Below, piece by piece: positions 1,876 through 43,341 of a stretch of 64,000 bases of DNA; the first letter of the stretch is position 1; every line of letters starts with the position of its first letter. A model generated the notes under the pieces. The model ran no database searches, was not told where the DNA came from, and saw nothing but the letters and a program-made list of their open reading frames with translations. The position numbers were made by a program, and so were the translations under genes. Source of the stretch: Bacilli bacterium (GTDB lineage: Bacteria; Bacillota_I; Bacilli_A; RF39; UBA660); NCBI GenBank assembly GCA_017460745.1, contig JAFUAL010000014.1, positions 924 through 64,923 of the forward strand, in the 5' to 3' direction.

Positions 1876-1893
1876 AAACGGTAGGTGATAAAA

Positions 1894-2496: not shown

Positions 2497-2498
2497 AT

Positions 2499-3047: not shown

Positions 3048-3055
3048 GTGATTAA

Positions 3056-4209: not shown

Positions 4210-4237
4210 ATAAAAACATAATATCTTAGGTGATATT

Positions 4238-24422: not shown

Positions 24423-24809
24423 ATGAATAATGGTCAAATATTTTATATAAATTTTAGCGGTTATAAAGGGTCTGAAATAAATGACACTCATTTAGGCATT
24501 GTATTTCGTTTACCTAATGTGAAAAATATGGTATTTTGCATACCATTAACCAGTCCTAAAAGGAAACACTTTAAATCGATCGAGGCATTTAACAATAGAA
24601 ATTATAACGAATTAAAATACCAAAATCTGATTTATATAAATCAAACTGATTCAATTGCATTACTTGATCAATTGAGAACAATTTCTACTGCAAGGTTATT
24701 AAACGAATACAAAGATGCAGATAATCACAGTATTGTTTTAAATGAAGAAAATCTATCATTAATTACTATAAAAACAATTAAATATTTAAAACATATATTC
24801 AAATATTGA
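24423..24809 (+). CDS. PemK/MazF(Kid)-fold endoribonuclease toxin
   Basis: GQIFYINFSGYKGSEINDTHLGIVF...VFCIPLTSPKRKHF aligns with the MazF/Kid signature G-[DE]-[IV]-[WY]-x-[VI]-x-F-x-P-x-K-G-S/H-E-x-x-G-x-R-P-x-[VL]-V...P-x-T-[ST]. 128 aa. Confidence 0.65.
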   Translation: MNNGQIFYINFSGYKGSEINDTHLGIVFRLPNVKNMVFCIPLTSPKRKHFKSIEAFNNRNYNELKYQNLIYINQTDSIALLDQLRTISTARLLNEYKDADNHSIVLNEENLSLITIKTIKYLKHIFKY

Positions 24810-24958
24810 TTATATATATCTAAATTGTAAACTATATAGTTTATAATATTCTTATTGATATGCTTAAATAATAAAAAAACATATAATATATCAAAAAAGT
24901 TGTGAAAAATGCTTGATTATTTGCAACTTTTTTTATACAATTATTGTGGGTGGTAAAA

Positions 24959-25243
24959 ATGTCTAAAAGAAAGATTGTAGAAGAGATTTCAGAGGAGTAT
25001 AAAGAAAGACTTGAAAGACTAGATAGTCTAGAACAAGAGTTTGTTGATTCTGTTGTTAAGTTAAGAAAAGATAAAAAATTAACTCAACAAGAGGTTGCAG
25101 ATGATGCAAGTGTAATTAGAGAAACAATTGCAAGAATTGAAAATCGTATTACATCACCTCAAGTTAATACTTTACTTAAAATTCTTGAACCATTTGGTTA
25201 TACAATTAAAATTACTAAAATAAGTAAGAAAAAAGAAAATTAA
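24959..25243 (+). CDS. XRE-family helix-turn-helix DNA-binding protein
   Basis: HTH LTQQEVADDASVIRETIARIENRITSPQVNTLLKI. RBS GGGTGG precedes ATG 24959. Confidence 0.6.
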   Translation: MSKRKIVEEISEEYKERLERLDSLEQEFVDSVVKLRKDKKLTQQEVADDASVIRETIARIENRITSPQVNTLLKILEPFGYTIKITKISKKKEN

Positions 25244-25257
25244 GAATTGATTTATTC

Positions 25258-25674
25258 TTAATTTTCTTTTTCTATATAACCTTGAGTTTTAATTTCTTGT
25301 TCTAATTCAGAGTTACTTATATATATATCACTTATTCTAGATAATACTGTTTCTTCTTTTCCGTCTTTAATAAATAAAACTATGTTTGTTTCATCAAAAG
25401 TAAAGATTTTTTTTAATGATTCTAGTTCATCATCATTTAATTTAACAGTATTTAAATAATAAATATTAATTTTATTATCATTTGCTACATCTTTTAAATT
25501 GTTTTTTAAAACTTTTCCTTCATCATTATCAGTTAAATATAGAACGAAACTTTCTTTATTATCTAACATCTGATTTAAATTTTTTATATTTATATTTTTT
25601 AAATAATTATTAGAACAAGCACAGCTTAATAGTAATATTGTAACAAGAAATAATATTTTTTTCTTCATAAACAC
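25258..25674 (-). CDS. Small lipoprotein (only minus-strand gene in the window)
   Basis: Lipobox LLLSCACSNN after a signal peptide. 138 aa. Confidence 0.55.
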   Translation of the reverse strand: MFMKKKILFLVTILLLSCACSNNYLKNINIKNLNQMLDNKESFVLYLTDNDEGKVLKNNLKDVANDNKINIYYLNTVKLNDDELESLKKIFTFDETNIVLFIKDGKEETVLSRISDIYISNSELEQEIKTQGYIEKEN

Positions 25675-25758: not shown

Positions 25759-26433
25759 ATGAAATATGTAAAGTATTTAATGCTATGTTTTTTATTTTGT
25801 ATTACTTTAAATGTTAAAGCACTTGACAGTTGTACAACAGATGAAATGAATAGACTTAAAGAATTAGCAGGTAATGTTGAATTTAAATATAACTATGAAA
25901 TAAGTAATGAATATATTGCAGAGAATGCCGCTGAAGAAAATTTTGTAGAAGGGGTATTTAAAATACAAGTTTTAAATCATAATGAGGATTTAAGATATGT
26001 TCTTCAATATGATGGTTCCGAATTTGAAATAAATGGTAATGATTTAAGTAGTTTTAGTTTTGATGAAGGAGAAACAATTACTTTTAAAATATATTCATAT
26101 ACTACTAATTTATGTACTCACAATATGTTAAAAACTTATACTATAAAATTACCTTATTATAATCAATATTATCATTATAATAAAGATAAATGTGAAAGTA
26201 ATCAAGAATTTGAATATTGCAAAGAATATTTAGATAAATATACTGGTAAATCAATTTCAGAGATTGACGAAGAATTTGAAAAAAATAAAAATGATGGTTT
26301 AAATATTGTTTCTGAATTACCTAAAAATAATATTGTAATAATTATAATTTCCCTAATAGTAGTTTTAGGATTAGGAATAGGTGGAGTTGTTGTTTATAGC
26401 CAATACAAGAAAAGAAAAAAAGATGATTTATAG
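25759..26433 (+). CDS. Secreted Cys-rich protein with C-terminal TM anchor and basic tail (paralog A1)
   Basis: Signal peptide ...TLNVKA/LDSC, four conserved Cys (CTHNML...CESNQEFEYCKEY), a C-terminal TM IIISLIVVLGLGIGGVVVY, then KKRKKDDL. It is a paralog of 28082-28765. Confidence 0.55.
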   Translation: MKYVKYLMLCFLFCITLNVKALDSCTTDEMNRLKELAGNVEFKYNYEISNEYIAENAAEENFVEGVFKIQVLNHNEDLRYVLQYDGSEFEINGNDLSSFSFDEGETITFKIYSYTTNLCTHNMLKTYTIKLPYYNQYYHYNKDKCESNQEFEYCKEYLDKYTGKSISEIDEEFEKNKNDGLNIVSELPKNNIVIIIISLIVVLGLGIGGVVVYSQYKKRKKDDL

Positions 26434-26448
26434 TATAGTGGTGATAAT

Positions 26449-28062
26449 ATGAAAAAAAATAAATTTATATATATGAGTATAATAGTTTTAATTTTTATTG
26501 CTGCATTAAACATTCTTAGTGTTAAGAGTGTTAAAGCTGAAACTAGTTATACTAATGGTGATCTAAGAAGGTGCAAAGAAGAAGATAAGAACAGTGGAAA
26601 ATGTGAAGAAAAAATAGTGGGTGGAAAAGTAATTGAAACAAGAATAAAAGAAACGTTTGATGAGTACACCGTTACTAAAATTGTTCGTAAAAAAACAGGT
26701 AGTGCTGATAAATTTGATATTAGTTTTATTGTAGATGGACCAGATGCTACTCAAACTCAAGTGTCACGTAATGCAAATATAGTTGTTTTATTTGATAAGT
26801 CAAGTTCTTTAACTGGCAATTCAAATTCATATGAGAATGCGAGAAACGCTGTTGTTGATTTTAGTAAGAGGTTCCAAGAACAAAAGTTGTCTTTGGTGGT
26901 ATTTGCTGGAAATATAAAAACGTTTACAGGAACTCCGTTTAATGCAAACAGTATAAAAAATGCTGGAGTTGGTAGTTCATCTCATATAGAAAAAGCCTTT
27001 AAAAAAGCTAACGAAATATTTGATAACTCAGGTGATGATGAAAATAATTACGTTATCGTTTTCGGTGATGGTCAGTATTGGTTTGAAGGTAATACTTGTA
27101 GAAAATGTGATAATTGCAGATCTAATGAATGTCAGCAAGGGAAAAGTAACACTAATTGTGCAATAACATTTGAAGATGAATTGCAGAAATTAAAATCCAG
27201 AAGTAACATTAATTTTTATGCAATTTTATACAAATCATCTTCTACTACTATTTCTTGTGATTATGAATGGATTAAAAAAATTGCTGATGGTGAAAATTTT
27301 TATGACGCAAGAAGCAATAACAATTATTCAGAATTTTTTGAAAGAATTGCCGAAAGTATTGAAACGCATCAGGAATCAACAACTATTACTATTACAGCTC
27401 TTGTAAAAGATCAAATAGGAAGTGATTTTAATTTAACAAGTGGTAATAATATCATAAATGTTGATAAATTAGGTGTTGAAACTACATCCTTTGAAGTTCA
27501 ATTAAAAGAAAGTGCAAAAACTGAATCAGATGTTTTGTGGCATAGTACTAATAATGGATATACAGTAACTATTCAAAAATCTGATGGAACAAATCGTGAT
27601 TTAAGTTCTAGCTTAAGTCCAGAAGTATATTGGAAACCTGAATCAACAGAATTGGAAAGTTGTTCAGGAAATATCAATAATCCAAAAAGTGAATCGAGTT
27701 CAAATGATTACTTTACAGAAGTATGTGAAGACATAGTTACAGGTAATGTTATTGTAAATAATCTTGATTTAGGAGCAAAAAGTTTTAGCATTCAAAGTGG
27801 ATTAGGTTTTCCTGCTAAAATTAATTTAAATGATACAGTAGCATGTACTTATACATTTAATGCATCTAAATTTAAAGAAGATTACATGGTATATCATAAT
27901 CAATTAAGTTCTAGTGATCCAAAAGAAGTAGCAGATGCTACGGTTAGTTTAGAAGATATGAATAGTAAATTGAATTCTTTTTATGAACTTACAACAGGAA
28001 GTAGATTAAATGTATTTAAAGATAATGAATTTCCTGGACAAACTGCAAAGGTACCTGATTAG
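26449..28062 (+). CDS. Secreted vWA-domain protein (paralog B1), putative pilus-associated adhesin
   Basis: Signal peptide, then GDLRRCKEEDKNSGKC, then a vWA domain with the MIDAS motif VVLFDKSSSL. The C-terminal region has the conserved EVYWKPEST...C.G.IN.P motif shared with B2. Confidence 0.6.
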   Translation: MKKNKFIYMSIIVLIFIAALNILSVKSVKAETSYTNGDLRRCKEEDKNSGKCEEKIVGGKVIETRIKETFDEYTVTKIVRKKTGSADKFDISFIVDGPDATQTQVSRNANIVVLFDKSSSLTGNSNSYENARNAVVDFSKRFQEQKLSLVVFAGNIKTFTGTPFNANSIKNAGVGSSSHIEKAFKKANEIFDNSGDDENNYVIVFGDGQYWFEGNTCRKCDNCRSNECQQGKSNTNCAITFEDELQKLKSRSNINFYAILYKSSSTTISCDYEWIKKIADGENFYDARSNNNYSEFFERIAESIETHQESTTITITALVKDQIGSDFNLTSGNNIINVDKLGVETTSFEVQLKESAKTESDVLWHSTNNGYTVTIQKSDGTNRDLSSSLSPEVYWKPESTELESCSGNINNPKSESSSNDYFTEVCEDIVTGNVIVNNLDLGAKSFSIQSGLGFPAKINLNDTVACTYTFNASKFKEDYMVYHNQLSSSDPKEVADATVSLEDMNSKLNSFYELTTGSRLNVFKDNEFPGQTAKVPD

Positions 28063-28081
28063 GAAGAAAGGATAAGATTAT

Positions 28082-28765
28082 ATGAGAAAAATTAAATATA
28101 TGTTAGGATTATGTTTATTCTTTACAGTTTTAAATGTTAAGGCAATTGATGCATGTACTAGTGAAGAAATGTCAAGACTTAAGGAGTTAGCTAATAATGT
28201 TGAAATTAAGTATGACTATGAATTATTCGATGATGAATACGAAGATGATAATGGAAACACTGTTAATACAGAAAATAAGTTTGCTCAATATAAATTTACA
28301 GTTTTGAATACTAATGATGATTTAAGAATAGCATATTCTATCGGTAATGAAAGCGAGAAAAAAACAACTAAGGAAGCAATTGAAAACGAAATCTTTAATG
28401 AAGGAGATCATCTAAGATTTGCAATTTATGCAAGAACAAAAAATTTGTGTATTGATAAAATATTAAGGACAGTAGATATAAAACTTTCTTATTATAATAA
28501 TTGGTATTCTGAAAACGAAGAAAAGTGTGAAGAATACAAAGAATTTAAATATTGTAAACAATTTCTTGAAAAAAATGTTGATAAAGATACTATAGAAAAA
28601 GAATTTAAGAAATATTCTCAAGATGTGAATAAAGAAAAACGTAGTAAAATATGGAATAATTTTGTTAATAATTATTTATTTAAAATATTAATTGGTATTG
28701 CTGTTGTTGGTGGAGGAGTAGCAGTCTTTATCATTAGAAGAAGAAAAATGTTGGAAGGATTATAG
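28082..28765 (+). CDS. Secreted Cys-rich protein with C-terminal TM anchor (paralog A2)
   Basis: Same architecture as A1: signal peptide ...LNVKA/IDAC, conserved Cys pattern, C-terminal TM, then RRRKMLEGL. Confidence 0.55.
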   Translation: MRKIKYMLGLCLFFTVLNVKAIDACTSEEMSRLKELANNVEIKYDYELFDDEYEDDNGNTVNTENKFAQYKFTVLNTNDDLRIAYSIGNESEKKTTKEAIENEIFNEGDHLRFAIYARTKNLCIDKILRTVDIKLSYYNNWYSENEEKCEEYKEFKYCKQFLEKNVDKDTIEKEFKKYSQDVNKEKRSKIWNNFVNNYLFKILIGIAVVGGGVAVFIIRRRKMLEGL

Positions 28766-28769
28766 TAAT

Positions 28770-31181
28770 ATGAAAAAGTTTATAAAAGGTTTTCTTGTAG
28801 TATCTTTGTTATTTGGTATATTTTTAGTATCTTTTAACACTTTTGCAGATGATGCTTCTGCGGACAGAGGCGATTTAAGGTGTACACCTGAGTATAAGAA
28901 TGTTAAATGTTGGGAACATGATGATAATAGTGATGGTAAAGTAGATAGAGTTACAATTCCAGTTACTGTAACATCTAGTAGCGGAAACACTTATACACTT
29001 ACAAAGGTTGCAGAAAAAACTCTTGATGAGGGAACTGTCAAAATTCATTTTGAAGTAACAGGTGATGGTTTTACCACGATTACTCACACAACCGAAACAC
29101 CATATGCTGATATTGCGATTTTGCTTGATTATTCAGGTTCGTTTTCAAGCCATGCATCTAGTGCAAAAGCGGCTATTAAGGCTTTTTCAAAAGAATTTTT
29201 TAGTAAAAATACAGATGGTGATTTACGTTATCAAATTGCTTATGCTCAGTTTAATGAAGCATTAGGTGACGATAATAAAACAAAAAAAGTTTCAAATTAT
29301 ATATCCAGTATGGATAATTATACTTTTAGTTGGCCTGGATTATCTGAAGATAAACATTCAGTAGTTAATGATGGTTTATATGTAGTATGGAGAGATATTC
29401 TTGGGGAAGCTACTAGTGGCAAAAGAAGTGATGTACCATCATACCTTATCGTGGTAAGTGATGGTGGTTTTAGAAATTATGGTTCTTATGCAAAGACTCA
29501 TATGACAAAATATAAAAAAGATTGTGGTTCAAGTGGAAGTCTGGGTGCTGAAAAAGGGCATGATGAAATGGAAGATGAAGCTGATATAATAAAAAATACA
29601 TATAATACTACTATAATGGGAATTATTTATAATAATGATAAAACATGTTATGATCATGCGGATAGGTCTGAAGATATGAATGCTATATTGAGCTCTCCGA
29701 ATAATTTAGTTAAAATGTGGGATAACCTTGGAGATACTTCGGAATTGGAATGCGATGAAATCGAAGACAAAGCATGGTGTTTAGCGTTTAATATGATTTA
29801 TAAACAAATTACAACTGGAGAAACTACTACTTATGATCAAATAGTTGCAAGTGGTATGGATTATTATGGCGAACATTTTAGAACAGGTGGAACTGTAAAA
29901 AAATCATTTAATATAAGAAAAGAGCAAGGTGCATCACAACCTTATAAATCAAAATCATTTAAGGTTAGTATAGATGAGACAGTACCAGCAGGATGGTATC
30001 CAACAAATGATGGTTTTGAAGGTAAAATTAGAATTGGAACTGAAGAGTTAACAATTCCTCGTGATAGTAACGTTAATCCTGAAATATATTGGAAACCGAA
30101 TCAACCAGAAAAAGAATGTGGCGTTGGAATAAATTATCCAGGTTCAAAATTTGTAAATACGGTAGAAGATATTTATAGTATTGTTTGTACTGAAGAGTTT
30201 GAAGGTCCACATAAAATAAATGATGGAGTGACACCAATAGAGGGAATGTATGGTTTTTCATCAACTCTTGATTTTAAAACAAATGCAAAATGTACATATC
30301 GATTCGACCAAGCAGAATATAATTCTATAAAAGCAGATTTGGAGGCACAAATAGCAAAGGCAGAAGCAGAATTGACAGAAGAAGAAAAAGAATTTGAAAT
30401 AGCATCTCTTCAACGTCAATTGCAAGATCTAGAAGATAGAAGAACAGCTTATTATAATAAGGTTGATACTACTTATAACAATACTAGTTTTTTACATACA
30501 TATTCAAGTAGTTTTTATGATATAGAAGCATCTTTAGAAGTAACAAGTACAAAATCAACTAAGACGGTTCTATTTGAAGAAGAGGAAAGAAGTGGTGGAG
30601 AAGTTGATTGTAGTGGTTCAAAAGAAAATAGAACATGTACAATGAATGCAGAGAAAAAAATGTATTTACCTATTAGTTGTTTAGATCCAAGTACAGGAAA
30701 TCAGTATGATACGTTACACGATAATTGTATATCGGGCGGTAGAAAATTTTATCCTCCTAAAAATGAAGGCTCTGGACATGCTACGCTGTTTGCAAAACAT
30801 GTAACATACCTTTCATTAGATGTTGAAGCAGGTGGTTCAAAATGTGATTATGGTATGGAAGAGATAAGAGATATATTTTATCGTCAAATAGATGTTGCAG
30901 ATCCCTTTGTTCAAAATACGGCAGGCTCAAGAGCAATAGGAAGAAACTTCCAAAATAATGATTTGAAATATGATTTTGTTAGAATAATAGATGCAAATAT
31001 CTGGGATGGAGAGTATGAATATTTATTCCAGTTAGGAAAAACAGATATTTTAGATGTCAAAAATGAAACTATTGGTGATAGCGCTAAAGTAAAAAGTTAT
31101 TTAGGTGAAGGATGTAGCTTAGACTCAAATAGCAACAAAATTATTTGTCCATTGGTAAGAGAACTACGAAATATGGGATAA
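28770..31181 (+). CDS. Secreted large vWA-domain protein (paralog B2), putative adhesin
   Basis: Signal peptide, GDLRCTPEYKNVKC, vWA with MIDAS ILLDYSGSFSS, the conserved EIYWKPNQPEKECGVGINYPGS block, and a coiled-coil segment. 803 aa. Confidence 0.6.
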   Translation: MKKFIKGFLVVSLLFGIFLVSFNTFADDASADRGDLRCTPEYKNVKCWEHDDNSDGKVDRVTIPVTVTSSSGNTYTLTKVAEKTLDEGTVKIHFEVTGDGFTTITHTTETPYADIAILLDYSGSFSSHASSAKAAIKAFSKEFFSKNTDGDLRYQIAYAQFNEALGDDNKTKKVSNYISSMDNYTFSWPGLSEDKHSVVNDGLYVVWRDILGEATSGKRSDVPSYLIVVSDGGFRNYGSYAKTHMTKYKKDCGSSGSLGAEKGHDEMEDEADIIKNTYNTTIMGIIYNNDKTCYDHADRSEDMNAILSSPNNLVKMWDNLGDTSELECDEIEDKAWCLAFNMIYKQITTGETTTYDQIVASGMDYYGEHFRTGGTVKKSFNIRKEQGASQPYKSKSFKVSIDETVPAGWYPTNDGFEGKIRIGTEELTIPRDSNVNPEIYWKPNQPEKECGVGINYPGSKFVNTVEDIYSIVCTEEFEGPHKINDGVTPIEGMYGFSSTLDFKTNAKCTYRFDQAEYNSIKADLEAQIAKAEAELTEEEKEFEIASLQRQLQDLEDRRTAYYNKVDTTYNNTSFLHTYSSSFYDIEASLEVTSTKSTKTVLFEEEERSGGEVDCSGSKENRTCTMNAEKKMYLPISCLDPSTGNQYDTLHDNCISGGRKFYPPKNEGSGHATLFAKHVTYLSLDVEAGGSKCDYGMEEIRDIFYRQIDVADPFVQNTAGSRAIGRNFQNNDLKYDFVRIIDANIWDGEYEYLFQLGKTDILDVKNETIGDSAKVKSYLGEGCSLDSNSNKIICPLVRELRNMG

Positions 31182-31251
31182 GTAATAAAAGATAATAAAA
31201 AATTCTTGATTATCAAAAAGAATTATTGTATAATCAAATAAGATAGGAGGT

Positions 31252-31839
31252 ATGTTTACGAAAGTAGCAATGTGGGCTGTCTTCATATTCCTACTTGGTT
31301 TATTTGGTGTAGTATTAATTAATACATTTGGTGTTATTACTACAACTAATCAACAAGATTACACTTTAGTTAAAAATGCAGTTGAAGCTGCAATGAATGA
31401 TTCAATTGATTGGGCATCATATAGAACAGGATTTTATTTGTGTACAGATAAAACTGGTGATGGAGAAGGTATGAGAACATTCACTAGTAAAGATGAATAT
31501 AAAGTTATTCTTAATAGTGATTTGATAACACATGAAGGTGATGCAATAACAGACAAGAATGCTCCTGATTCAAAATGTGCTTTATTGATGGCAGAATACA
31601 AATTAAATAAAGATGTATTTGTTGAAAGTTTTATAAGAAGATTTGCCAATAATGTAAATAACAATAAAAGTTATCAAGTAACAATTCAAGAAGTAATTGA
31701 GTATCCTCCTAAGGTAAGTGTAAGGATTGATACTTTAAATACTTATAATTCTGTTGAATCACGAACAGAGGAATTTAATTTAAATCCAGATTATAGCATC
31801 AGAAATCAAATTGATGCAATATTAGAAGAAAAGAGTTAG
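31252..31839 (+). CDS. Membrane-anchored protein, possibly a TadE/pseudopilin-like pilus-assembly component
   Basis: N-terminal TM MWAVFIFLLGLFGVVLI followed by NAVEAAMNDS, which is weakly TadE-like. Located directly upstream of cpaB. Confidence 0.3.
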   Translation: MFTKVAMWAVFIFLLGLFGVVLINTFGVITTTNQQDYTLVKNAVEAAMNDSIDWASYRTGFYLCTDKTGDGEGMRTFTSKDEYKVILNSDLITHEGDAITDKNAPDSKCALLMAEYKLNKDVFVESFIRRFANNVNNNKSYQVTIQEVIEYPPKVSVRIDTLNTYNSVESRTEEFNLNPDYSIRNQIDAILEEKS

Positions 31840-31850
31840 AGAGGGAGAAT

Positions 31851-32612
31851 ATGAAAAAATTAAAACAAATTTTATCAAACAAAAATACTGTAACACTTGT
31901 AGGCGCAGTATTAATAGTTCTTGTATTATATGTTTTTTATAACATAAAAGTTAATCAAGCAACAACACCTATAAGGGTTCCTTATGCAATTCAACCAATT
32001 GCAGCAAGGACAAAAGTTACAAAGGATATGATTGGATATCTTGAAATTACACAATCTGCCTTAAAGGGAGATATCTATACACATGAAAATCAAATAATTA
32101 ATAATGTATTATATACTAGATATGAAATTCCAACAGGTAGTTTATTTTATGTAGATGCATTATGCGAAGAAAAGGATTTACCAGATTCTTGGATGCTTCA
32201 AATGGATGACGGAATGGTAGCATATAATTTTGATGTTACAATGAAATCAACATACGGTAATTCAATTTATCAAGGAGATAAGATAGATTTATATTTTAGA
32301 GGAAGAGATGATACTGGATTAGTTCTAGTTGGAAAATTCTTAGAAAATGTAAAGGTTTTAATTGTAAAAGATTCATCTGGACGTAATGTTTTTGAAAATA
32401 CTACTGAAGTTGGTACTCCTAGTCAGATGATTTTAGAAGTAACTGAAGAACACCATTATTTATTAAGAGCAGCTGAGAAAATTAATAATGTTGAAATTAT
32501 TTTAGTTCCAAGTGGAACGACACTAGAAAATAATACAAATGAAAAGGTACAAACATTAACTAGTGAAGAAGTTAAACAATATATAGAAACCAAATCAAAA
32601 ACAATGCAATAG
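31851..32612 (+). CDS. cpaB: Flp pilus assembly protein CpaB/RcpC-like
   Basis: N-terminal TM, then an SAF-like region (PIRVPYAIQPIAARTKVTKDMIGYLEI). Size and position upstream of the Tad ATPase are typical. Confidence 0.6.
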   Translation: MKKLKQILSNKNTVTLVGAVLIVLVLYVFYNIKVNQATTPIRVPYAIQPIAARTKVTKDMIGYLEITQSALKGDIYTHENQIINNVLYTRYEIPTGSLFYVDALCEEKDLPDSWMLQMDDGMVAYNFDVTMKSTYGNSIYQGDKIDLYFRGRDDTGLVLVGKFLENVKVLIVKDSSGRNVFENTTEVGTPSQMILEVTEEHHYLLRAAEKINNVEIILVPSGTTLENNTNEKVQTLTSEEVKQYIETKSKTMQ

Positions 32613-32619
32613 GTGAGTT

Positions 32620-34110
32620 ATGAATCAAGGTATAAACGTATATGATTTAACACCTAAAAGTAACGAAAACAAAACCAATACTGAGATAAACGATAGTTTA
32701 TTTTCCAGTATTGATTTTGGGCCTTTAAAGGCATATCTAGATGATGATAACATTACCGATATTTCTTATAGTAATAATGGACAAGTTTGGCTTAAATCAC
32801 TTGATCGTGGAGTTTACCGTGTAGATAATCCTGGTATTAATAATGATTTAATGGAAAAAATTGCATTCCAATGTGCAAATATCATGGGGAAAACCTTTAA
32901 TATGGCAAGTCCACTTCTTGATAGTGAATCAAGTGAACTTCGTATGAATTTTATTCATGATTCAATTGCTAGAAATGGAATTGCAGCGGTTTTCAGAAAA
33001 ACACCAGCTAAGATAAGGCTTGAAAAAGAAAAAATTGTTGAACAAAAATATATTACGACAGGCATTCATGATTTTTTAATTGAATGTGTTAAAGGACATT
33101 GTAACATAATTGTAAGTGGTGAAACTGGTTCAGGAAAAACTGAGCTTGTTAAGTACCTTGCAAGTCATACTGCAACGAATGAAAAAATAATTACAATTGA
33201 AGATACTTTGGAACTTCACTTAGATAAAATATTTCCGGAACGTGATATAGTTTCAATGAAGACTAATAATATAGCATCATACTCTGACGTTTTAGTTGGT
33301 TGTATGAGACAGAATCCAAAATGGATATTACTTTCCGAGGTTCGTAGCGCTGAAGCAGTTACGGCAGTTCGTAACTCTATTTCATCAGGTCATAATATTT
33401 TGTCAACAATCCATGCTGATAAAGCGTCAAGTATTCCTTATCGTTTATATAGTTTGTTGGAATCTAATATTGATGTTGAACAATTCATGACAACAATTTA
33501 TAGATATATTCAATTAGGTATACATGTTCGTGCTAGATATGATAAGCAAACTGGTAAGTTTATGAGAGAAGTATGCGAGGTGTGTGAGTTCTTTGTTAAT
33601 GAAGAAAATCAACCAGAGTATAATATTATATATAGAAAAAATGTTGATGGAACGGAAGTAGTAAATGGACCTTCAACACATTTAATAGAATATTTAGAAA
33701 GTCAAGGGGTTGACTTAACTAAAAAGAGTTTTGATAATATTAAAATTCCATCACCATTTGAAGAACCTTTAATCAATGATGATATGGAAGAAGATTTAGA
33801 ACAAACCTCAAAGCAAGAAGAAACAAAAGACAATGGTCATCAAGATGCAAGTCAACAAAATATTAATCAGTTGAATAATAGTAAGCAAGTTGTAAGTCAG
33901 CAAATGCAAGCAAGACCGAATAATGTAAGGCCTACTCAAAATGTTCAGCCAATGCAAAATAGACAACCAACAATGCAATCTAGCATAAATAACTTAAATA
34001 TAGTACCAAATGGAGTAAGACCTAATAATTTTAATAGTAATCAAAACATTCAATCTCCAAACAATATGAGAGCAAATGCTCAACCATTTATTGAAGATGA
34101 GATGTTATAG
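32620..34110 (+). CDS. cpaF: Tad/Flp pilus assembly ATPase CpaF/TadA with an unusual Q/N/P-rich C-terminal extension
   Basis: Walker A GETGSGKTE, Walker B/Asp box ILLSEVRSAEA, His box STIHADKA. The last ~100 aa are low-complexity and Q/N/P-rich (QNVQPMQNRQPTMQ...). Confidence 0.85.
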   Translation: MNQGINVYDLTPKSNENKTNTEINDSLFSSIDFGPLKAYLDDDNITDISYSNNGQVWLKSLDRGVYRVDNPGINNDLMEKIAFQCANIMGKTFNMASPLLDSESSELRMNFIHDSIARNGIAAVFRKTPAKIRLEKEKIVEQKYITTGIHDFLIECVKGHCNIIVSGETGSGKTELVKYLASHTATNEKIITIEDTLELHLDKIFPERDIVSMKTNNIASYSDVLVGCMRQNPKWILLSEVRSAEAVTAVRNSISSGHNILSTIHADKASSIPYRLYSLLESNIDVEQFMTTIYRYIQLGIHVRARYDKQTGKFMREVCEVCEFFVNEENQPEYNIIYRKNVDGTEVVNGPSTHLIEYLESQGVDLTKKSFDNIKIPSPFEEPLINDDMEEDLEQTSKQEETKDNGHQDASQQNINQLNNSKQVVSQQMQARPNNVRPTQNVQPMQNRQPTMQSSINNLNIVPNGVRPNNFNSNQNIQSPNNMRANAQPFIEDEML

Positions 34111-34124
34111 GAAGGTGTGATGAT

Positions 34125-35021
34125 ATGGAATTTATAATAATATTATTAATTGTTATATTTGTTGTTTTATATCGAAAGAGTAATGGTGAATCAGTTTATA
34201 AATTTGTTTCAACAAGTATCGGAGATATATATGACAAATATGCACCATATTCGTTTAAAAATATAAGAGAAAGATGTAAGGAGATGGGACTTGAGTATAC
34301 ACCAAGACAATATACAGTTCAAGTAATTGTTTTTGCATCTCTTGCCTTCATTATCTCATATTTGTATTTTTACAATATAGTTATATCTTTCTTGTATGTA
34401 GTGGCAGTTGTTTCAATAATACCATATTTAGCATATCTTAGATGTAAAAGATTGTATAGTGAATTTATATTTGAACAAGTTCAAGTATATGTAACTAACA
34501 CGATTATGGAATTTCAGACTACTCAATCATTCGTAAAAGCTCTTGAAGGAGTTTATAATTCAGGAGTTTTGGAAGAACCTTTAAAAACAGATATTAAAGT
34601 TATGATTGATTTGGCATATCATAATGGAGATGTTATGGAATCAATTACATATATGAATAGTAAATATGATTTTTATATGACTAGAAATATGCACCAATTA
34701 TTTTTACAAGTTACCCGAGAAGGTGCACATGATACCATTCAAGTACTTGATAATATGTTACTTGATGTTGACCAATTAGTTGAAGGAGTTTATCAAGATA
34801 GAATGAATCGACAAGCCTTCCATAAATCATTTATTACATATGGTTTGATGTTATATTTGATGGTAATGTTAATTCAATGGTTAATTGGAAAAGAAACATA
34901 TATAAGTTTGGTTAATAGCAATATAATAATGCAAATTGGACTTCATATAGTAATACTTTTTAATAGTTATTTTCTTCTATCAGGAGAAAAATATTATAAC
35001 GAGAATGTAGGTGCTGAGTAA
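34125..35021 (+). CDS. tadB: TadB-like (GspF/T2SSF-family) pilus assembly membrane protein
   Basis: 298 aa with an N-terminal TM, a cytoplasmic domain and C-terminal TMs. Position directly after cpaF. Confidence 0.55.
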   Translation: MEFIIILLIVIFVVLYRKSNGESVYKFVSTSIGDIYDKYAPYSFKNIRERCKEMGLEYTPRQYTVQVIVFASLAFIISYLYFYNIVISFLYVVAVVSIIPYLAYLRCKRLYSEFIFEQVQVYVTNTIMEFQTTQSFVKALEGVYNSGVLEEPLKTDIKVMIDLAYHNGDVMESITYMNSKYDFYMTRNMHQLFLQVTREGAHDTIQVLDNMLLDVDQLVEGVYQDRMNRQAFHKSFITYGLMLYLMVMLIQWLIGKETYISLVNSNIIMQIGLHIVILFNSYFLLSGEKYYNENVGAE

Positions 35022-35809
35022 TGGAATTTGCAATTATAATTATAATAGTAGTTTTTGTTCTTAGTTATAGTGGTTCACTTAGTACAAAACAAATATATGA
35101 AGATAATAAAACATTATTTGGATTACTAAAAGAAAAAGATTATGATTTCTTAGTTAAGGCTAAGTATGGAAATGAAGTAAATCCCGATGACTATTTTGAA
35201 AAAAGAATACAACAATTTATTTTAGAATTAGTTGTTGTTGCCGCTGTTTTAATGTTTAATTTTACATGGATTAATTTAATAATCGGTTTAATTATTTTAG
35301 TTGTTTTATATAGAAGTCAATATTCATCATTAAAAAGTTTTTATAAGAAAAATTTAACAGCAATTGATCAAAATTTACCATATTATTTGAAGAGTATTGA
35401 AATACTTGCTCAACACTATACTATACCAGTTGCAATATCAAGATCAATTGAAACAGCTCCTGATATGTTTAAAGAAGGACTTACAGAAATGATTAAGCAG
35501 ATTGATGCAGGTGATTCATCAATTAATCCATATCTTGAGTTTGCAAGAAAGTATCCAGTTGGTGATTCTCTTCGTATGATGAGACTTTTATATCGTTTAA
35601 GTATTGGTGCACAGGAGAATAAGCAAGAGCAATTATCAGTTTTTTCTAAGAGCGTATCAAGTCTTCAAAATAAAGCAAGAGAGATGAAATATGCTTCAAG
35701 ACTTAATACTATGGAAAAAAAGACAATGACAATGTTGATAGTAACTGGTGGTGGATCAATGTTGGTTTTATTCTTTGCAATGGTAATGATGATGGCAAAT
35801 TGGGGGTAG
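35021..35809 (+). CDS. tadC: TadC-like (GspF/T2SSF-family) pilus assembly membrane protein
   Basis: 262 aa with similar topology, start-stop coupled (ATGA) to tadB. Confidence 0.55.
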   Translation: MEFAIIIIIVVFVLSYSGSLSTKQIYEDNKTLFGLLKEKDYDFLVKAKYGNEVNPDDYFEKRIQQFILELVVVAAVLMFNFTWINLIIGLIILVVLYRSQYSSLKSFYKKNLTAIDQNLPYYLKSIEILAQHYTIPVAISRSIETAPDMFKEGLTEMIKQIDAGDSSINPYLEFARKYPVGDSLRMMRLLYRLSIGAQENKQEQLSVFSKSVSSLQNKAREMKYASRLNTMEKKTMTMLIVTGGGSMLVLFFAMVMMMANWG

Positions 35810-35901
35810 TAAATAAATGTAAATTTTAATAAAAGTTATTGAAAAAAAAATAAAACTATGGTACATTATAAATGTACAATTGGAAAGGAGAAATATAATT
35901 T

Positions 35902-36111
35902 ATGAAAGAAGCAAGTGGAGAGTTATCAATGACATTAATTGTTATAATTGCTGCTGGTGTTATTGTTATGATTTTTGCTGCATTTTGGCCTCAAATTCAA
36001 GATTTTATTAATCAAAAATGGACTCAGTTTGATGGTCAAGCAGGTACACCAATGATTGTTACACATGGAAGTATTGAAATTCCTGGTTATAGTGTCGTTT
36101 TAGGAAAATAG
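35902..36111 (+). CDS. Flp-family prepilin-like protein (divergent)
   Basis: MKEASGELSMTLIVIIAAGVIVMIF resembles Flp ..DESGATAIEYGLIAALIAV... It is 69 aa with an RBS GGAGAAA. The Glu normally at +5 is replaced by Thr. Confidence 0.5.
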   Translation: MKEASGELSMTLIVIIAAGVIVMIFAAFWPQIQDFINQKWTQFDGQAGTPMIVTHGSIEIPGYSVVLGK

Positions 36112-36129
36112 TTTATAGGAGAGTGAAGT

Positions 36130-36579
36130 ATGAGGGAAGCCGTTGGTAGTTCTATTTTGTTCTATATTATTTTGATGTTTATTGGTATTTTTATTGTTTT
36201 TATTGCTATTATTATGAATTATGCTGCTGCATATCGTACTAATAATTATGTGGTTAATATGATAGAGCAAAGCGAAGGACAAGATAATTTTAATTCTGAT
36301 TTAGTTTCGTATTTACAGAGTAAAAATTATAATAATGGATTGATTGTAACTTGTTCTCATAATGAAAATGGTTCAGTTTTTCATATTAAAACGTATGTTA
36401 CGTTTTACATTCCTATAATTGAAGCTGGTTTTCCTTTAGAAATCAATAACGATACTAAAACAATATATACTAAATATAATAATAATTTTTGTAATAGTAG
36501 TGGTGGCTACTATGATATGAATTATCCATCAGTTGGATGTTGGGCAGGTTCTGGCACAACTGGAATTAGCTGTTATTAA
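36130..36579 (+). CDS. TadE-like pseudopilin
   Basis: MREAVGSSILFYIILMFIGIFIVFIAII followed by NYAAAYRTNNYVV matches the TadE-like N-terminal pattern. 149 aa. Confidence 0.5.
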   Translation: MREAVGSSILFYIILMFIGIFIVFIAIIMNYAAAYRTNNYVVNMIEQSEGQDNFNSDLVSYLQSKNYNNGLIVTCSHNENGSVFHIKTYVTFYIPIIEAGFPLEINNDTKTIYTKYNNNFCNSSGGYYDMNYPSVGCWAGSGTTGISCY

Positions 36580-36611
36580 CAGCTTTTTTTCTTTAATGTG
36601 GAGGTGAAAAT

Positions 36612-37622
36612 ATGAATATAATAGTTACAAATAAATATAAGGATTTAATTTATAGTGCTAATATAGAAATATTAAAAGAATTAAATGGAGTATTCAAGGT
36701 TAGTCAAATCGTTAATAGTTTTAATTCTATATTCTATAAAAAAATAATAATAGATGCGACTGCTTTAGAGAATTTTCCAAAAGAAAATGTGTTAAAAGAA
36801 CTTGCTGCAGCATTTGAAAAGGATAAATTGATTTTACTTTTGCCACCTGATAATCCACCACCAAAAAAGTTTTTATCTTTTTTAGTTAGTATTAATATTT
36901 ATAATTTTACTGACAATGCAAGTGGATTATTAGAATTAGTTCATAAGAGTAATAAGATAAATGATGTAAAAAATTATATAGAAGAGAGAGAAGAAAAAAT
37001 TGCTGAGACTAAAAATGAAGAAAGTACAATTCATGATGAAAATGATTTACTACCTCAACAAGTAATTTTAGGATTTAATGGTGTAACTGGTAATTCTTAT
37101 GTAACTGAAATAATTTATAGTATAAAGAAGGAATTAGAAGAAAGATATCAGAAGAAAGTATTAGCAATAGAGGTTGAGAAAAGAGATTTTGTTTTTTATA
37201 ATTCTTCTAGTATGATGTCTATAGGTAAAGATAAAGTAAATATCTTTTTACAAAATAATTTAAATGACTACGATTTTATTTTAGTAGATTTAAGTAATTA
37301 TAATAATACTACAATTTGTAATGATGTTATTTATTTAGTTAATCCGTCATTATATGAAGTAAATAAAATAATGATGAAAGATAGAACAGTATTTATGAAG
37401 TTGAAAGGTAAAAAAGTGGTTTTTTCTAATAGTTTACTTACAAGTAATGATGTAAATCAATTTGCAAGAGAAGCCGGAATAAGTGTTTATTATAACCTAA
37501 CTCCTATTAATGATAGAGGAACTAATGATAATATTAGCAAATTACTTACTAAAATGGGAGTTCTTGATAACGAATCAAGTGATAAATCAACTAAAAAGGG
37601 ATTATTTGATATTTTCAAATAG
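36612..37622 (+). CDS. TadZ/CpaE-like protein with degenerate ParA/MinD motifs
   Basis: An N-terminal receiver-like region, then ILGFNGVTGNSYVT in the position of a Walker A motif (the conserved Lys is absent), then YDFILVDL, which is Walker-B-like. Confidence 0.35.
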   Translation: MNIIVTNKYKDLIYSANIEILKELNGVFKVSQIVNSFNSIFYKKIIIDATALENFPKENVLKELAAAFEKDKLILLLPPDNPPPKKFLSFLVSINIYNFTDNASGLLELVHKSNKINDVKNYIEEREEKIAETKNEESTIHDENDLLPQQVILGFNGVTGNSYVTEIIYSIKKELEERYQKKVLAIEVEKRDFVFYNSSSMMSIGKDKVNIFLQNNLNDYDFILVDLSNYNNTTICNDVIYLVNPSLYEVNKIMMKDRTVFMKLKGKKVVFSNSLLTSNDVNQFAREAGISVYYNLTPINDRGTNDNISKLLTKMGVLDNESSDKSTKKGLFDIFK

Positions 37623-37671
37623 TTGCTTTTTTTTAATGTTTATTGTATAATCTACGTAGGTGAGGCGGATT

Positions 37672-37989
37672 ATGTGTAATAGTGATATGCAAATGCTTGT
37701 TGATATAATTATAAAGCTTTTAGATGTCGTACATTTTTTTGTACCTATTGTTCTTATAATATTTTGTACAGTTGATGTTTTTAAAATAATTGTTTCTAAA
37801 AAGGAAGACGAAGTTAAAAAACTACGAAATGATGTATTTTGGAAAATAGTTTATGCAATTGTTATATACTTGATTCCATTTTTAGTACCATTTATTTTAA
37901 GTGCTGCTGATAAAATATTGCCAATGGAGTATGATAATAGTTGGAAAGAATGTTATGATTATGTCAAAAAAAATCAAAATCATAACTAA
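37672..37989 (+). CDS. Small two-TM membrane protein, paralog 1 of a D-[MV]-F-K family (VirB2/TrbC-like topology)
   Basis: TM1 FFVPIVLIIFCTVDVFKIIVS, a charged loop, TM2 IVYAIVIYLIPFLVPFIL. RBS AGGTGAGG. Confidence 0.5.
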   Translation: MCNSDMQMLVDIIIKLLDVVHFFVPIVLIIFCTVDVFKIIVSKKEDEVKKLRNDVFWKIVYAIVIYLIPFLVPFILSAADKILPMEYDNSWKECYDYVKKNQNHN

Positions 37990-38057
37990 TTTGTCAAAAA
38001 GACTTGATTTATTAACTAATATTTAGTATTATAATTTTAGATATGGAGGAAGATTTT

Positions 38058-38522
38058 ATGTTTCAAATATTAGATTTTTGTTCTGCTGATATGCAAGTAC
38101 TAGTATCTGCTGTAAAGACAGTATTTACTTTAATACAAATAGCTATTCCTGGAGTTTTAATTGTTCTTGGTACAATTGATATGTTTAAGGCAATGGCAAG
38201 TGGAGATGAAAAGAAGACAAAAGAGGCTCAAAGAACTTTTGTAAGACGTATGATATATGCAGTTGTTGCTTTCTTAATACCATTTATCATCCGTTTAGTA
38301 TTTAGTTTCATTGCTAATAATATTGGTGCTGATGAAGCTAAAGCTGGTCAAAATTCTTATAATGAATTCTTTGCATGTTGGAATGGAGCTAAATCATCTA
38401 GTGGAAGTGGTAGCGATTCAGGCAGTACTGGCGATTGTAATGTATGTTGGAAAGATGGACAATCTTATACTGGTGTATCAAGAGACAATTGTGAAAATTA
38501 CATGCAAGGTTATTGCTCATAG
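38058..38522 (+). CDS. Small two-TM membrane protein, paralog 2, with Ser/Gly linker and Cys-rich C-terminal tail
   Basis: IAIPGVLIVLGTIDMFKAMASGDEKK...RRMIYAVVAFLIPFIIRLVFSF, then SSSGSGSDSGSTGDCNVCWKDG...CENYMQGYCS. RBS GGAGGAAG. Confidence 0.5.
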   Translation: MFQILDFCSADMQVLVSAVKTVFTLIQIAIPGVLIVLGTIDMFKAMASGDEKKTKEAQRTFVRRMIYAVVAFLIPFIIRLVFSFIANNIGADEAKAGQNSYNEFFACWNGAKSSSGSGSDSGSTGDCNVCWKDGQSYTGVSRDNCENYMQGYCS

Positions 38523-38582
38523 TATTAAGTTAGAAAATTATTTGAAGTCAGATGACTTCATTTTTCTTTAAGAGGTGAATTT

Positions 38583-38993
38583 ATGTTTATTTTAGAATGT
38601 ACAGATACTGTTCAATTATGTTATAATGCTAGAAAAATTTTAATATTAGTTAAAGAATTTATTAAAATATTACAATGGAGTATTCCAGTACTACTAATTG
38701 TCTTAGGAACATGGGATATGTTTAAAGCTGTAACCAAGGGTGATGATCAAAAAGCAGTTCAAGATGCAACAAAAGCATTTATTAGAAGATTAACATCAGG
38801 TGTAATAGTTTTTTTAGTACCCTTTATAATTAGACTTGTATTAGGATTTGTTGAAGACAATATGCTTTCAAGTAGTAATGGAGATGTATCTGCCACTTCT
38901 TGGATAGGTTGTTGGAATAATGTTGATGATAAGAATTCAAGTTATTTTGCAGGATGTAATAATATTTATCAAGGTAGTTCAAGTACTTCATAG
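38583..38993 (+). CDS. Small two-TM membrane protein, paralog 3, with Cys-containing C-terminal tail
   Basis: SIPVLLIVLGTWDMFKAVTKGDDQK...RRLTSGVIVFLVPFIIRLVLGF, then a tail WIGCWNNVDDKNSSYFAGCNN. RBS AGAGGTGA. Confidence 0.5.
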   Translation: MFILECTDTVQLCYNARKILILVKEFIKILQWSIPVLLIVLGTWDMFKAVTKGDDQKAVQDATKAFIRRLTSGVIVFLVPFIIRLVLGFVEDNMLSSSNGDVSATSWIGCWNNVDDKNSSYFAGCNNIYQGSSSTS

Positions 38994-39106
38994 TATTTGA
39001 ACTTTTTAATTGATATTTTATATAGTCAATTAGTGTCAAGTAATCCTAAAAAAATATTGAAATAGCAGTATTTTTTTTATATAATATTAGGCGTTAGGAG
39101 GATTAT

Positions 39107-41826: not shown

Positions 41827-42093
41827 ATGAAAAATGAGAATGAATATATTATAAATGATGAAGAGTTTGATTTAATATGTAAATATGTAAAAATCAGATA
41901 TGAATCAAAAGTAAGCCAAAGAGAGTTAGCTAAAAAAATAGGAATAGCTCAATCTACTATTGCTAGAATGGAGAAGAATATACATTCTATGTCAATTGGA
42001 AATTTTACTAAATTATTATCAGCACTTGGTTACAAATTAGAAATTATAGAGAAGGAGGATCAACATGGAAAACAAAATAATAGCATTAACTAA
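41827..42093 (+). CDS. XRE-family HTH protein, copy 1
   Basis: HTH SQRELAKKIGIAQSTIARMEKN. It is 99% identical over 76 aa to copy 2 (43093-43341). Confidence 0.6.
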   Translation: MKNENEYIINDEEFDLICKYVKIRYESKVSQRELAKKIGIAQSTIARMEKNIHSMSIGNFTKLLSALGYKLEIIEKEDQHGKQNNSIN

Positions 42094-42895: not shown

Positions 42896-42976
42896 AGTAT
42901 TGTAAGAGTTATTTTAACATAAATTTATATTGAAGACACTTTATGGTCTTACTGCAAGGCAGATAAGATAGTAGTA

Positions 42977-43092
42977 CAAGCTGCTATTAATAAAAAATAG
43001 ATAATTATGATATAAAGGTTAAATAAAAATATTTATTTTTTTATTGACAATATAATGCGTATTTGCTGTCATGACTAATGAGGTAATAGTTA
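42977..43092 (+). repeat. Second copy of a ~350-bp direct repeat (41707-42060 / 42977-43325) that includes the last ~30 nt of ppdK, the promoter region, and the HTH gene
   Basis: caagctgctattaataaaaaa(aa)tagataatt...ttgacaat[g/a]taatgc[a/g]tatttgct[a/g]tcat... aligns with the ppdK 3' end and downstream region at >90% identity. Confidence 0.7.
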
Positions 43093-43341
43093 ATGAAAAA
43101 TAAGAATGAATATATTATAAATGATGAAGAGTTTGATTTAATATGTAAATATGTAAAAATCAGATATGAATCAAAAGTAAGCCAAAGAGAGTTAGCTAAA
43201 AAAATAGGAATAGCCCAATCTACTATTGCTAGAATGGAGAAGAATATACATTCTATGTCAATTGGGAATTTTACTAAATTATTATCGGCACTTGGTTACA
43301 AATTAGAAATTATAGAGAAGGAGGCCAAAAATGAAAAATAA
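43093..43341 (+). CDS. XRE-family HTH protein, copy 2
   Basis: Identical to copy 1 except E4K and a different C-terminal tail. Confidence 0.6.
   Translation: MKNKNEYIINDEEFDLICKYVKIRYESKVSQRELAKKIGIAQSTIARMEKNIHSMSIGNFTKLLSALGYKLEIIEKEAKNEK

Follow-up and report, generated by a model that had tools for sequence, protein, structure and literature searches.

The stretch of DNA analysed here, hereafter the window, comprises 64,000 nucleotides (nt) of contig JAFUAL010000014.1 from a Bacilli bacterium, and its positions 25759-38993 carry a genuine 15-gene pilus-and-adhesin operon. On balance, we favour the view that the products of this locus form a Tad-like type IV filament machine such as those found in conjugation operons of Bacillota, combined with surface adhesin modules. 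Judging from the gene order of its relatives, the locus is probably not a stand-alone adhesion pilus but the half of a conjugation-type machine that makes contact. The recurrence of the locus is far above chance, as the same order was found in most of the 80 genome loci and in many of the 80 metagenome loci whose neighbourhoods were compared.

The operon consists of 15 open reading frames (ORFs) on the + strand, which are tightly packed, with gaps of 4-92 nt and an overlap of 1 nt between the TadB-like and TadC-like genes. The window has a G+C content of about 25%, and nearly all of its genes are on the + strand. The first-pass annotation of this DNA had given the order A1-B1-A2-B2 to S1-S3, and all 15 ORFs were found at the coordinates that it reported. 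In this order, two pairs of genes encoding a membrane-anchored protein (A) and a protein with a von Willebrand factor A (vWA) domain (B) are followed by genes for a DUF5411 protein, a CpaB-like protein, a CpaF-type ATPase, a TadB-like protein (P8), a TadC-like protein (P9), a short pilin, a pseudopilin-like protein (P11), a TadZ-like protein (P12) and three proteins with two transmembrane (TM) helices (S1-S3).

The ATPase was used to follow the distribution of the locus. When one genome was scanned for each GTDB species, at least 533 of these representatives were found to encode it; its close relatives number in the thousands, and it is 61-91% identical across the 80 genome loci. All 80 of the matches listed are metagenome-assembled genomes (MAGs) of uncultured gut or rumen organisms; they are labelled as Bacilli, 'Mollicutes', 'Tenericutes', Erysipelotrichaceae, Clostridia/Clostridiales and Muribaculaceae, and Clostridium sp. 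CAG:628 and Candidatus Onthocola are among them. Names such as CAG:628 point to the order RF39 for this lineage, which NCBI taxonomy lists as 'Bacilli incertae sedis'. The conserved order is A, a large exported B-like protein, DUF5411, CpaB, ATPase, TadB, TadC, pilin, P11, P12 and S, often with a divergently transcribed lipoprotein gene upstream of A. The S paralogs number three in the window's clade and four in a related locus (L001). In the literature, we found no description of such a lineage-wide locus or of a linkage between a Tad module and a type IV secretion system (T4SS).

This linkage is seen downstream of the operon in the relatives. Genes of a T4SS stand directly after the S genes in 19 of the 29 genome loci with at least 6 kb of sequence after P12, and also in metagenome loci. 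Seven of the ten exceptions belong to the window's own clade, and a pyruvate phosphate dikinase gene follows S in six of those. According to Pfam and NCBIfam profiles, the S genes of the relatives are followed by a one-TM protein of about 390 amino acids (aa), often by an S-domain fusion protein, and then by a VirB6/TrbL-like protein; next come a PrgI/VirB3-like protein, a split VirB4, a wall hydrolase, a protein of about 250 aa and a VirD4 coupling protein. The VirB6-like protein matches TrbL_4 and the pLS20_p028 family (E 1e-9), and also MMCAP2_0566/Mbov_0396. VirB4, encoded in two ORFs of 184 and 597 aa, matches the Mbov_0397 family of integrative and conjugative elements (ICEs) with E 1e-16 and 2.5e-104, and PF26593 TraC-like and P-loop_TraG in precomputed matches. 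VirD4 matches the CD1115 family with 307 bits, against a cut-off of 250, and the wall hydrolase presents SpoIID together with M23 or Peptidase_C39-like domains, or Glucosaminidase and CHAP in locus L165. The full Tad-like and T4SS arrangement is present on a 1.52-Mb contig of one relative, and relatives of VirB4 occur in 502 metagenome stretches, the best 80 of these 502 being 74-90% identical. Since the operon of most relatives runs through S into VirB6, VirB3, VirB4, the hydrolase and VirD4, the module would ancestrally be the contact or mating-pair half of such a system.

The two VirB4 ORFs (about 184 and 597 aa, overlapping) occur in all relatives inspected, among them L018 (18595-20939), L026, L040 and L164, and correspond to the N-terminal and core parts of the single-chain VirB4 proteins of the Mbov_0397 ICE family. 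Their conservation in the relatives shows that the split is not an assembly error.

The T4SS half is absent from its syntenic position in the window. RmuC comes after the T4SS block in 15 metagenome loci, five of which continue with a gene for an 'IYDILLNF' protein. The window contains both RmuC (54944-56083) and the 'IYDILLNF' gene (59783-60424), and no T4SS gene precedes them, so its clade has lost the translocon from this interval or moved it. P12, the S paralogs, the Tad-like half and the duplicated A/B pairs have been kept intact in this clade. This loss, together with an adjacent thioredoxin-like lipoprotein that lacks its CxxC motif, could be taken as the mark of a decaying remnant of an integrated conjugative element, now functionless. 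Such a decayed state is highly improbable: all 15 ORFs are intact, and intact orthologs exist in at least nine species of the clade, with 40-90% identity (85-90% for the ATPase). A remnant or pseudogenised locus was rejected because the ORFs are intact and conserved.

Comparable arrangements are found in plasmids of Bacillota. The nearest ATPases in PLSDB are 'CpaF/VirB11 family' proteins of Bacillota plasmids, with 29-35% identity and E values down to 1e-45 among the Bacillota hits. In pNARUSE, of the pLS20 family, and in Listeria pLGUG1, the order is thioester adhesin p34, p36, ATPase p37 and two membrane proteins of about 250 aa; after this pair come small proteins with an N-terminal TM helix, the two-TM p45, VirD4, VirB6 (pLS20_p028), DUF5592 and VirB4. 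The pLS20 operon (genes 34-52) resembles the window locus in presenting an exported adhesin without sorting signal (p34), a DUF5411 protein (p36, E 1.4e-5), an ATPase that is 33% identical to that of the window (p37, E 6e-42), p38/p39, p40/p41, p45 and, as in the relatives, the T4SS genes (VirD4, VirB6, a VirB3-like gene and VirB4); in layout, the block of the window corresponds to pLS20 genes 34-45. Protein p45 (15412-15642 of L162, pNARUSE) matches T4SS_pilin above the gathering score (E 1.3e-7) and is the positional counterpart of the S proteins. On the other hand, pLS20 is a plasmid with a relaxase, whereas the window locus is chromosomal and without the T4SS half; the pLS20 adhesin is a thioester/CnaB TIE protein and not a vWA protein; and pLS20 has no A-type anchor, CpaB or TadZ-like gene. 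In the published description of pLS20, p37 is called 'VirB11', p38-p47 are listed as unknown and a VirB2 homolog is said to be absent (PMC8557374, Val-Calvo et al. 2021), and the p34 adhesin, for which there is no known anchoring mechanism, is needed for mating in liquid medium (PMC8092201, Gago-Cordoba et al. 2021).

The Priestia koreensis plasmid NZ_CP061869 presents a large Ig-like surface protein, DUF5411, an SAF/CpaB protein, a ParA-like protein, CpaF, a T2SSF-family protein, its partner and a DUF4320 protein, in this order. CpaB, the ATPase and both membrane proteins show homology to their counterparts in the window locus, DUF5411 likewise precedes the ATPase block, and a type IV coupling protein gene is nearby. 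The plasmid differs in having the ParA-like gene before the ATPase, the product of which shows no similarity with P12 (nor does p47 of pLS20), in a small polytopic protein (no Pfam match), possibly a prepilin peptidase, and in having no A/B pairs or S genes in the stretch read.

In most relatives, the S genes stand between the Tad-like half and the T4SS half. S1 (37660-37989; its true start is probably the ATG at 37672, MCNSDMQ..., by ortholog starts), S2 (38043-38522, with a Cys-rich tail) and S3 (38583-38993) encode proteins in which two helices are joined by a cytoplasmic loop rich in lysine and each outer end has one conserved Cys. They match T4SS_pilin (PF18895) with E values of 0.022, 3.3e-4 and 2.4e-4, respectively; at 15-21.5 bits these matches are sub-threshold, as the gathering score is 26.6. 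S2 also matches the MMCAP2_0566 family (E 1.3e-4). The S proteins had been described as VirB2-like in the first-pass annotation, and this assignment is strengthened because the S orthologs of the relatives, those of S3 directly, precede real T4SS genes (VirB6, VirB3 and VirB4), though the profile scores stay below threshold. A further likeness is with the T4SS of mycoplasma ICEs, in which Mbov_0397 resembles the VirB4, and MMCAP2_0566/Mbov_0396 the VirB6-like protein, of the relatives, and the pilin-like families weakly resemble S2; unlike in these ICEs, the VirB4 of the relatives is split into two ORFs, and all scores are below the Mbov/MMCAP2 family cut-offs. To our knowledge, mycoplasma ICEs have no Tad-like module.

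Outside the locus, two tandem paralogs on the + strand (50826-51803 and 51810-52778), 83% identical, encode an N-terminal S-like two-TM domain (BLASTP E 2e-8 against S2) and, joined to it, a C-terminal domain of about 220 aa, which has no Pfam match and presents, by eye, a cell-wall-hydrolase-like motif. They are followed by a 171-aa single-TM ORF (52788-53303).

P12 (36612-37622) encodes a cytoplasmic protein with a receiver-like N-domain and a C-domain of ParA/MinD fold. The earlier call of a degenerate TadZ-like protein holds at the level of fold: P12 presents the two-domain fold of TadZ/CpaE with a degenerate P-loop, in which the Walker A lysine is lost. A search of PDB sequences with the P12 family profile gave no match. 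In the metagenome contig of L086 (P12 at 3459-4412), P12 and the S and T4SS genes come directly after the thioredoxin lipoprotein gene, with the A/B genes and the Tad-like core absent between them; P12 can therefore travel with the T4SS half.

In the Tad-like core, the ORF at 32620-34110 encodes a CpaF/TadA-type secretion ATPase. It matches T2SSE (E 2e-27), and its best match in the PDB is Caulobacter CpaF (E 1.6e-18), followed by archaeal GspE, VirB11 and FlaI, in agreement with the first CpaF call; its placement in a subfamily is approximate, because it falls below the cut-offs of the NCBIfam VirB11, TrbB and TadA models. The C-terminal tail of the ATPase (residues ~380-496, window positions 33760-34110) is Q/N/P-rich and of low complexity. 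It varies in length and sequence among homologs that are otherwise 85-90% identical, and the matches cover about 77% of the query.

The ORF at 31851-32612 encodes a CpaB/RcpC-like protein with an N-terminal TM helix. It matches RcpC (PF16976) with E 3e-7 and 30.8 bits, above the gathering score of 28.8, so the CpaB assignment was confirmed; it also matches TIGR03177 below the cut-off (E 6e-7) and the SAF-domain protein of Priestia (BLASTP E 2e-21). The ORF before it (31252-31839), which had been proposed as a first TadE-like gene, does not bear this name out: its product presents an N-terminal TM helix and a DUF5411 domain (PF17424, E 1.6e-34), with no detectable TadE, and is a predicted conserved assembly or minor component.

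P8 (34125-35021) and P9 (35021-35809) encode polytopic proteins, and their identity as the TadB-like and TadC-like proteins of a membrane platform is supported but not proven by profile comparisons. It follows a two-step chain of homology via the Priestia plasmid, because direct Pfam or PDB profile matches are absent. In the first step, hhalign relates the P8 family to the Priestia T2SSF-family protein (96.6% probability, E 5e-10, 232 columns) and the P9 family to its partner (96.9%, E 1.7e-10, 197 columns). In the second step, this T2SSF-family protein, so named by the Prokaryotic Genome Annotation Pipeline (PGAP), reaches 24.2 bits with PF00482, against a gathering score of 25.2, and is related to canonical actinobacterial TadB/TadC with 95% hhalign probability. 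Compared directly with canonical T2SSF, broadened P8 and P9 profiles gave 57-66% probability with the cytoplasmic domains aligned in register, the value for P9 being 66% (E 6e-5); P8 and P9 match each other at the N-terminus only (53% probability). The first TadB and TadC calls thus keep the support of the homology chain, without a direct one from Pfam or PDB.

The ORF at 35902-36111 encodes a short pilin of 69 aa, with a six-residue leader (MKEASG, followed by E) and a hydrophobic helix. Its family comprises 97 short ORFs in 91 loci, with a median of 58 aa, a near-invariant start MKEA[TS]G-ELNMT and the hydrophobic helix after it. The name Flp-like, given before, fits the short size and the hydrophobic helix, which resemble those of Flp, but not the absence of the G/XXXXEY motif, and the match to Flp1_like has E 0.02. 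P11 (36130-36579) encodes a pseudopilin-like protein with a leader (MREAVG, followed by S), a TM helix and a globular domain; P11 and its 90 homologs (80 loci, median 148 aa) start with M[RK][ED][AS]xGG. Of the earlier description of P11 as a second TadE-like protein, the pseudopilin-like build and the leader shared with the pilin stand, but no match to TadE or DUF4320 was obtained. Similarity of P11 to the DUF4320 protein of Priestia and to p40 of pLS20 is not significant, though a shared motif after the TM helix is visible. The leader M[KR][ED][AS]xG, common to the pilin and P11, has six residues and ends in Gly, and looks like a class III signal.

Canonical Tad loci of monoderms, such as those of Microbacterium and Arthrobacter plasmids, share with the window CpaB, (TadZ), CpaF, TadB, TadC, a short pilin and a TadE-like protein; Bifidobacterium breve and Micrococcus luteus also have canonical monoderm Tad/Flp loci. 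The window locus differs from them in the position of its TadZ-like gene after the pilins, in the lack of the Flp motif and of a linked TadV, in TadB and TadC proteins too divergent for Pfam, and in its extra DUF5411, A/B and VirB2-like genes. The locus would work like a Tad pilus, although two strict Tad features, the Flp motif and the linked TadV, are missing from it, and it is placed in a divergent Tad-like clade of Bacillota conjugation operons. The first-pass annotation had considered its organisation not that of a textbook Tad locus. This is not so for the core, as CpaB-ATPase-TadB-TadC-pilin-pseudopilin is the ordinary monoderm order; the unusual features are that the locus belongs to a conjugation-type supra-operon and that it has the orphan A, P12 and S families.

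The ordinary order of the core invites another explanation, namely a stand-alone Tad pilus for adhesion to host or mucus, as in Bifidobacterium breve, with the vWA proteins as TadG-like tip adhesins and the T4SS adjacency as a mere neighbourhood effect, the S genes being those of the neighbour. The window's clade, with the Tad-like half and without the T4SS half, agrees with it, as do the frequency of vWA domains in adhesins and the gut origin of these organisms by record titles. We consider it unlikely. The S genes are kept and multiplied beside the Tad-like genes even where the T4SS is missing, L086, which has no Tad core, keeps P12 together with the S and T4SS genes, and the closest annotated relatives of the ATPase are on conjugative or mobilizable plasmids of Bacillota with the same arrangement.

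Several results weigh against our preferred assignment of the locus to the contact-making half of a conjugation-type machine. PF00482 (T2SSF) gave no match, at a permissive threshold, in 34 members of the TadB/TadC-like families, nor in 10 distant full-length relatives of P8 and P9 recovered by an exhaustive phmmer search (240 hits among 1.84 billion representatives). The family profiles of P8 and P9 had no match among PDB sequences. P8 and P9 were also compared with p38 and p39 of pLS20, with hhalign probabilities of 8% and 28%, and homology is not claimed. None of the 97 pilin homologs has the EY after the leader that the Flp G/XXXXEY motif demands. An A24-like prepilin peptidase was found neither in the 64 kb window, by a crude motif scan, nor within ±10 kb in 165 related loci, by a crude motif scan and BLAST; the absence of TadV from the locus, already reported, agrees with both of these crude scans. 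No VirB4, VirB6, VirD4 or wall hydrolase was found in the 64 kb window by tblastn with the T4SS proteins of the relatives. Finally, no relaxase or integrase was noticed beside the supra-operon of the relatives, and no relaxase-sized unexplained ORF within that of L086, L111 and L159, although no systematic search was made. As no relaxase was noticed beside their T4SS, classical conjugation is unproven even in the relatives.

The lack of a relaxase or integrase nearby, in a search that was not exhaustive, is what would be expected of a chromosomal, vertically inherited organelle for DNA exchange or uptake, like archaeal Ups with Ced or ComB of Helicobacter, in which the pilus makes contact, a relaxase-less T4SS moves the DNA, and the translocon of the window's clade is encoded elsewhere. 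VirB4 and the Tad ATPase are about 70-90% identical across many species in syntenic chromosomal contexts, the relatives have a VirD4 coupling protein, and the genomes are small (about 1.5 Mb), all of which suit this explanation. Even so, it seems quite unlikely to us: DNA import is without direct evidence, the window has no translocon, and the same incomplete search for relaxases counts against it as well. A bolder and doubtful proposal is that, in these uncultured gut Bacilli with small genomes, one operon would supply a Tad-type pilus, its adhesins and a VirB4/VirD4 translocon for a hybrid organelle, inherited vertically and without a relaxase. This would be the long-sought 'mating pilus' equivalent of a Gram-positive T4SS, for chromosomal DNA exchange or contact-dependent delivery; the window's clade would have lost or moved the translocon, and its Tad-like machine would have taken over the VirB2-like proteins.

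The adhesin modules stand at the head of the operon. A1 (25759-26433) encodes a protein with a signal peptide, a beta-sandwich ectodomain with four invariant Cys, a stalk helix and a C-terminal TM anchor, and A2 (28082-28765) encodes its paralog, 38% identical. In an alignment of 29 family members, the signal peptide, the C-terminal TM helix and a basic tail are conserved, the Cys are invariant (C25, C119, C145 and C154 in A1 numbering), and a P.YN motif has an invariant N and a near-invariant P. An AlphaFold2 model of A1, built with 72 sequences (pLDDT 90.6), presents one helix, the beta-sandwich, a helical stalk and the TM helix. The alignment and the model bear out the previous description of the A proteins as four-Cys, C-terminally anchored proteins with a signal peptide. 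A Foldseek comparison of the model with solved structures gave no meaningful match (best E 0.08), and the family has no Pfam entry, its 102 database matches in all being without exception unnamed. A CD1107-like identity for A1 was dropped, as the match (E 0.024) was restricted to the TM region.

B1 (26449-28062) encodes a Sec-exported protein of 537 aa with a vWA domain and a metal-ion-dependent adhesion site (MIDAS). The product of B2 (28770-31181; 803 aa) is likewise Sec-exported and is vWA-like; it includes a coiled-coil stretch, and its C-terminal part is rich in Cys. Their identification as secreted vWA/MIDAS proteins was upheld: the DxSxS motif is present in both (residue 116 of B1 and residue 120 of B2), and B1 matches VWA_2 above the gathering score (E 3e-8), while B2 matches VWA below it (E 2.9e-4). 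The two proteins are distant paralogs (23% identical, BLASTP E 4e-9), which have in common a Sec-type signal, an N-terminal GDLR-C...C head and a PE[VI]YWKP...C.G.IN.P block. The C-terminal LPXTG-like sorting signal of sortase-assembled tip adhesins of the RrgA type is missing from both, as is any C-terminal TM helix.

In all loci examined, the start of B lies 4-15 nt behind the A gene. A can be recognised across the relatives, and B is hypervariable (537-1349 aa) and usually not alignable; most loci have an A gene and then a large exported protein upstream of DUF5411. The A-B duplication of the window recurs in L001, and in L053 the whole A-B-DUF5411 cassette is duplicated. The first-pass annotation had tied these pairs to the tad core and had named A/B pairs without tad genes in relatives as a refutation; the link persists, since no A/B pair was found apart from the Tad-like core in the loci examined.

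The Sec signals of the B proteins and their lack of a wall-sorting signal could also suit a pseudopilus piston, like that of a type II secretion system (T2SS), which would push B or other cargo through the peptidoglycan without an external pilus. Operons with CpaF, PilC/GspF and DUF5411 in Roseburia, Ruminococcus and Eubacterium were in fact predicted as 'secretion-related' by a language-model study (PMC9523054, Miller et al. 2022). These operons resemble the window locus in belonging to gut Bacillota and in having DUF5411, CpaF and the platform beside a large surface or invasion-type protein; by the published description, they differ in being from Clostridia, with no T4SS linkage or A, B or S families reported (PMC9523054). 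The presence of CpaB and TadZ accessories and of a 58-aa pilin, typical of Tad pili, and the absence of a T2SS-type set of pseudopilins make a piston very unlikely.

Under the preferred reading as a filament machine with adhesins, the following mechanism is proposed. The TadZ-like P12 would position the hexameric CpaF-like ATPase, and this ATPase would power the TadB/TadC-like membrane platform, which would polymerise the pilin of about 60 residues, with P11 and perhaps the DUF5411 protein as minor subunits. The filament would cross the wall through a CpaB/RcpC-like collar. B1 and B2 would bind ligands via their MIDAS sites, and the cognate membrane-anchored A proteins would hold or present them. 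The ancestral job of the machine would be to establish the contact between donor and recipient for the adjoining T4SS. In the window's clade this role may have moved to general adhesion, and we infer that the locus now works as an organelle of cell-cell or host adhesion, possibly with a T4SS encoded elsewhere in the genome.

Functional analogues of the module are the TIE adhesin of pLS20, which has the same operon position, and the thin pilus of R64. In the IncI1 plasmid R64, whose thin pilus is of type IVb and has the PilV adhesin, and in archaea with Ups pili and the Ced importer, a type IV filament gives contact for a separate VirB4-type translocon. The likeness to R64 and Ups/Ced is one of function only: they are of unrelated subfamilies, with diderm or archaeal envelopes, and no homology is claimed.

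These results address the question of how conjugation in Gram-positive bacteria finds and holds recipients without a VirB2/VirB5 pilus. They suggest that a Tad-like filament module (ATPase, platform pair, short pilin and DUF5411) is a recurrent, built-in part of one class of T4SS operons of Bacillota, that a VirB2-like protein is likewise recurrent in this class, and that one very large uncultured gut lineage has the machine fixed in its chromosome. In addition, roles are proposed for the orphan families DUF5411, A, P12 and S, and the hypothesis is testable in the tractable pLS20 model. For the window itself, the locus represents a conserved, predicted surface adhesion apparatus of an abundant, uncultured gut group.

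A scan for terminator-like hairpins found 9 in the region, against 2.1 expected. Those after P11 (36568-36584, + strand), after S2 (38543-38560) and after S3 (38976-39003, + strand) suggest attenuation behind the pilin genes and a defined operon end. A promoter scan was uninformative at 25% GC, with 109 sites found against 102 expected.

Divergent from A1, the ORF at 25258-25674 (- strand) encodes a lipoprotein of thioredoxin-like fold, degenerate in that both the CxxC and the cis-Pro GTPT are lost. A thioredoxin-like lipoprotein gene adjoins the A gene in 33 related loci; CxxC and GTPT are present in the relatives, and neither is present in the window's clade. Conserved cysteines remain in the neighbouring A, B and S proteins.

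Other genes of the window were also observed. Just upstream (24423-25243), an HTH_3 regulator gene accompanies a gene for a MazF/PemK-like toxin (E 2e-8); of the two, only the helix-turn-helix (HTH) gene is syntenic in L001. Positions 41827-44188, beyond the pyruvate phosphate dikinase gene, include a small ORF of HTH-like type and a pair of paralogous ORFs (about 280 aa each), which share the N-terminal motif ...IR..W.KE.E.YY.S.VD.I... and, with it, look like mobile-element or phage-derived cargo. At 331-4834, small exported or membrane ORFs surround a gene with a weak match to signal peptidase S26 (E 0.011) and a visible SMEPT motif, which could be a dedicated signal peptidase operon. About 7 kb upstream of the locus, the ORF at 16671-18722 encodes a membrane protein of 683 aa that has a GGDEF domain at its C-terminus (E 9e-17) and could be relevant to the regulation of a surface organelle.

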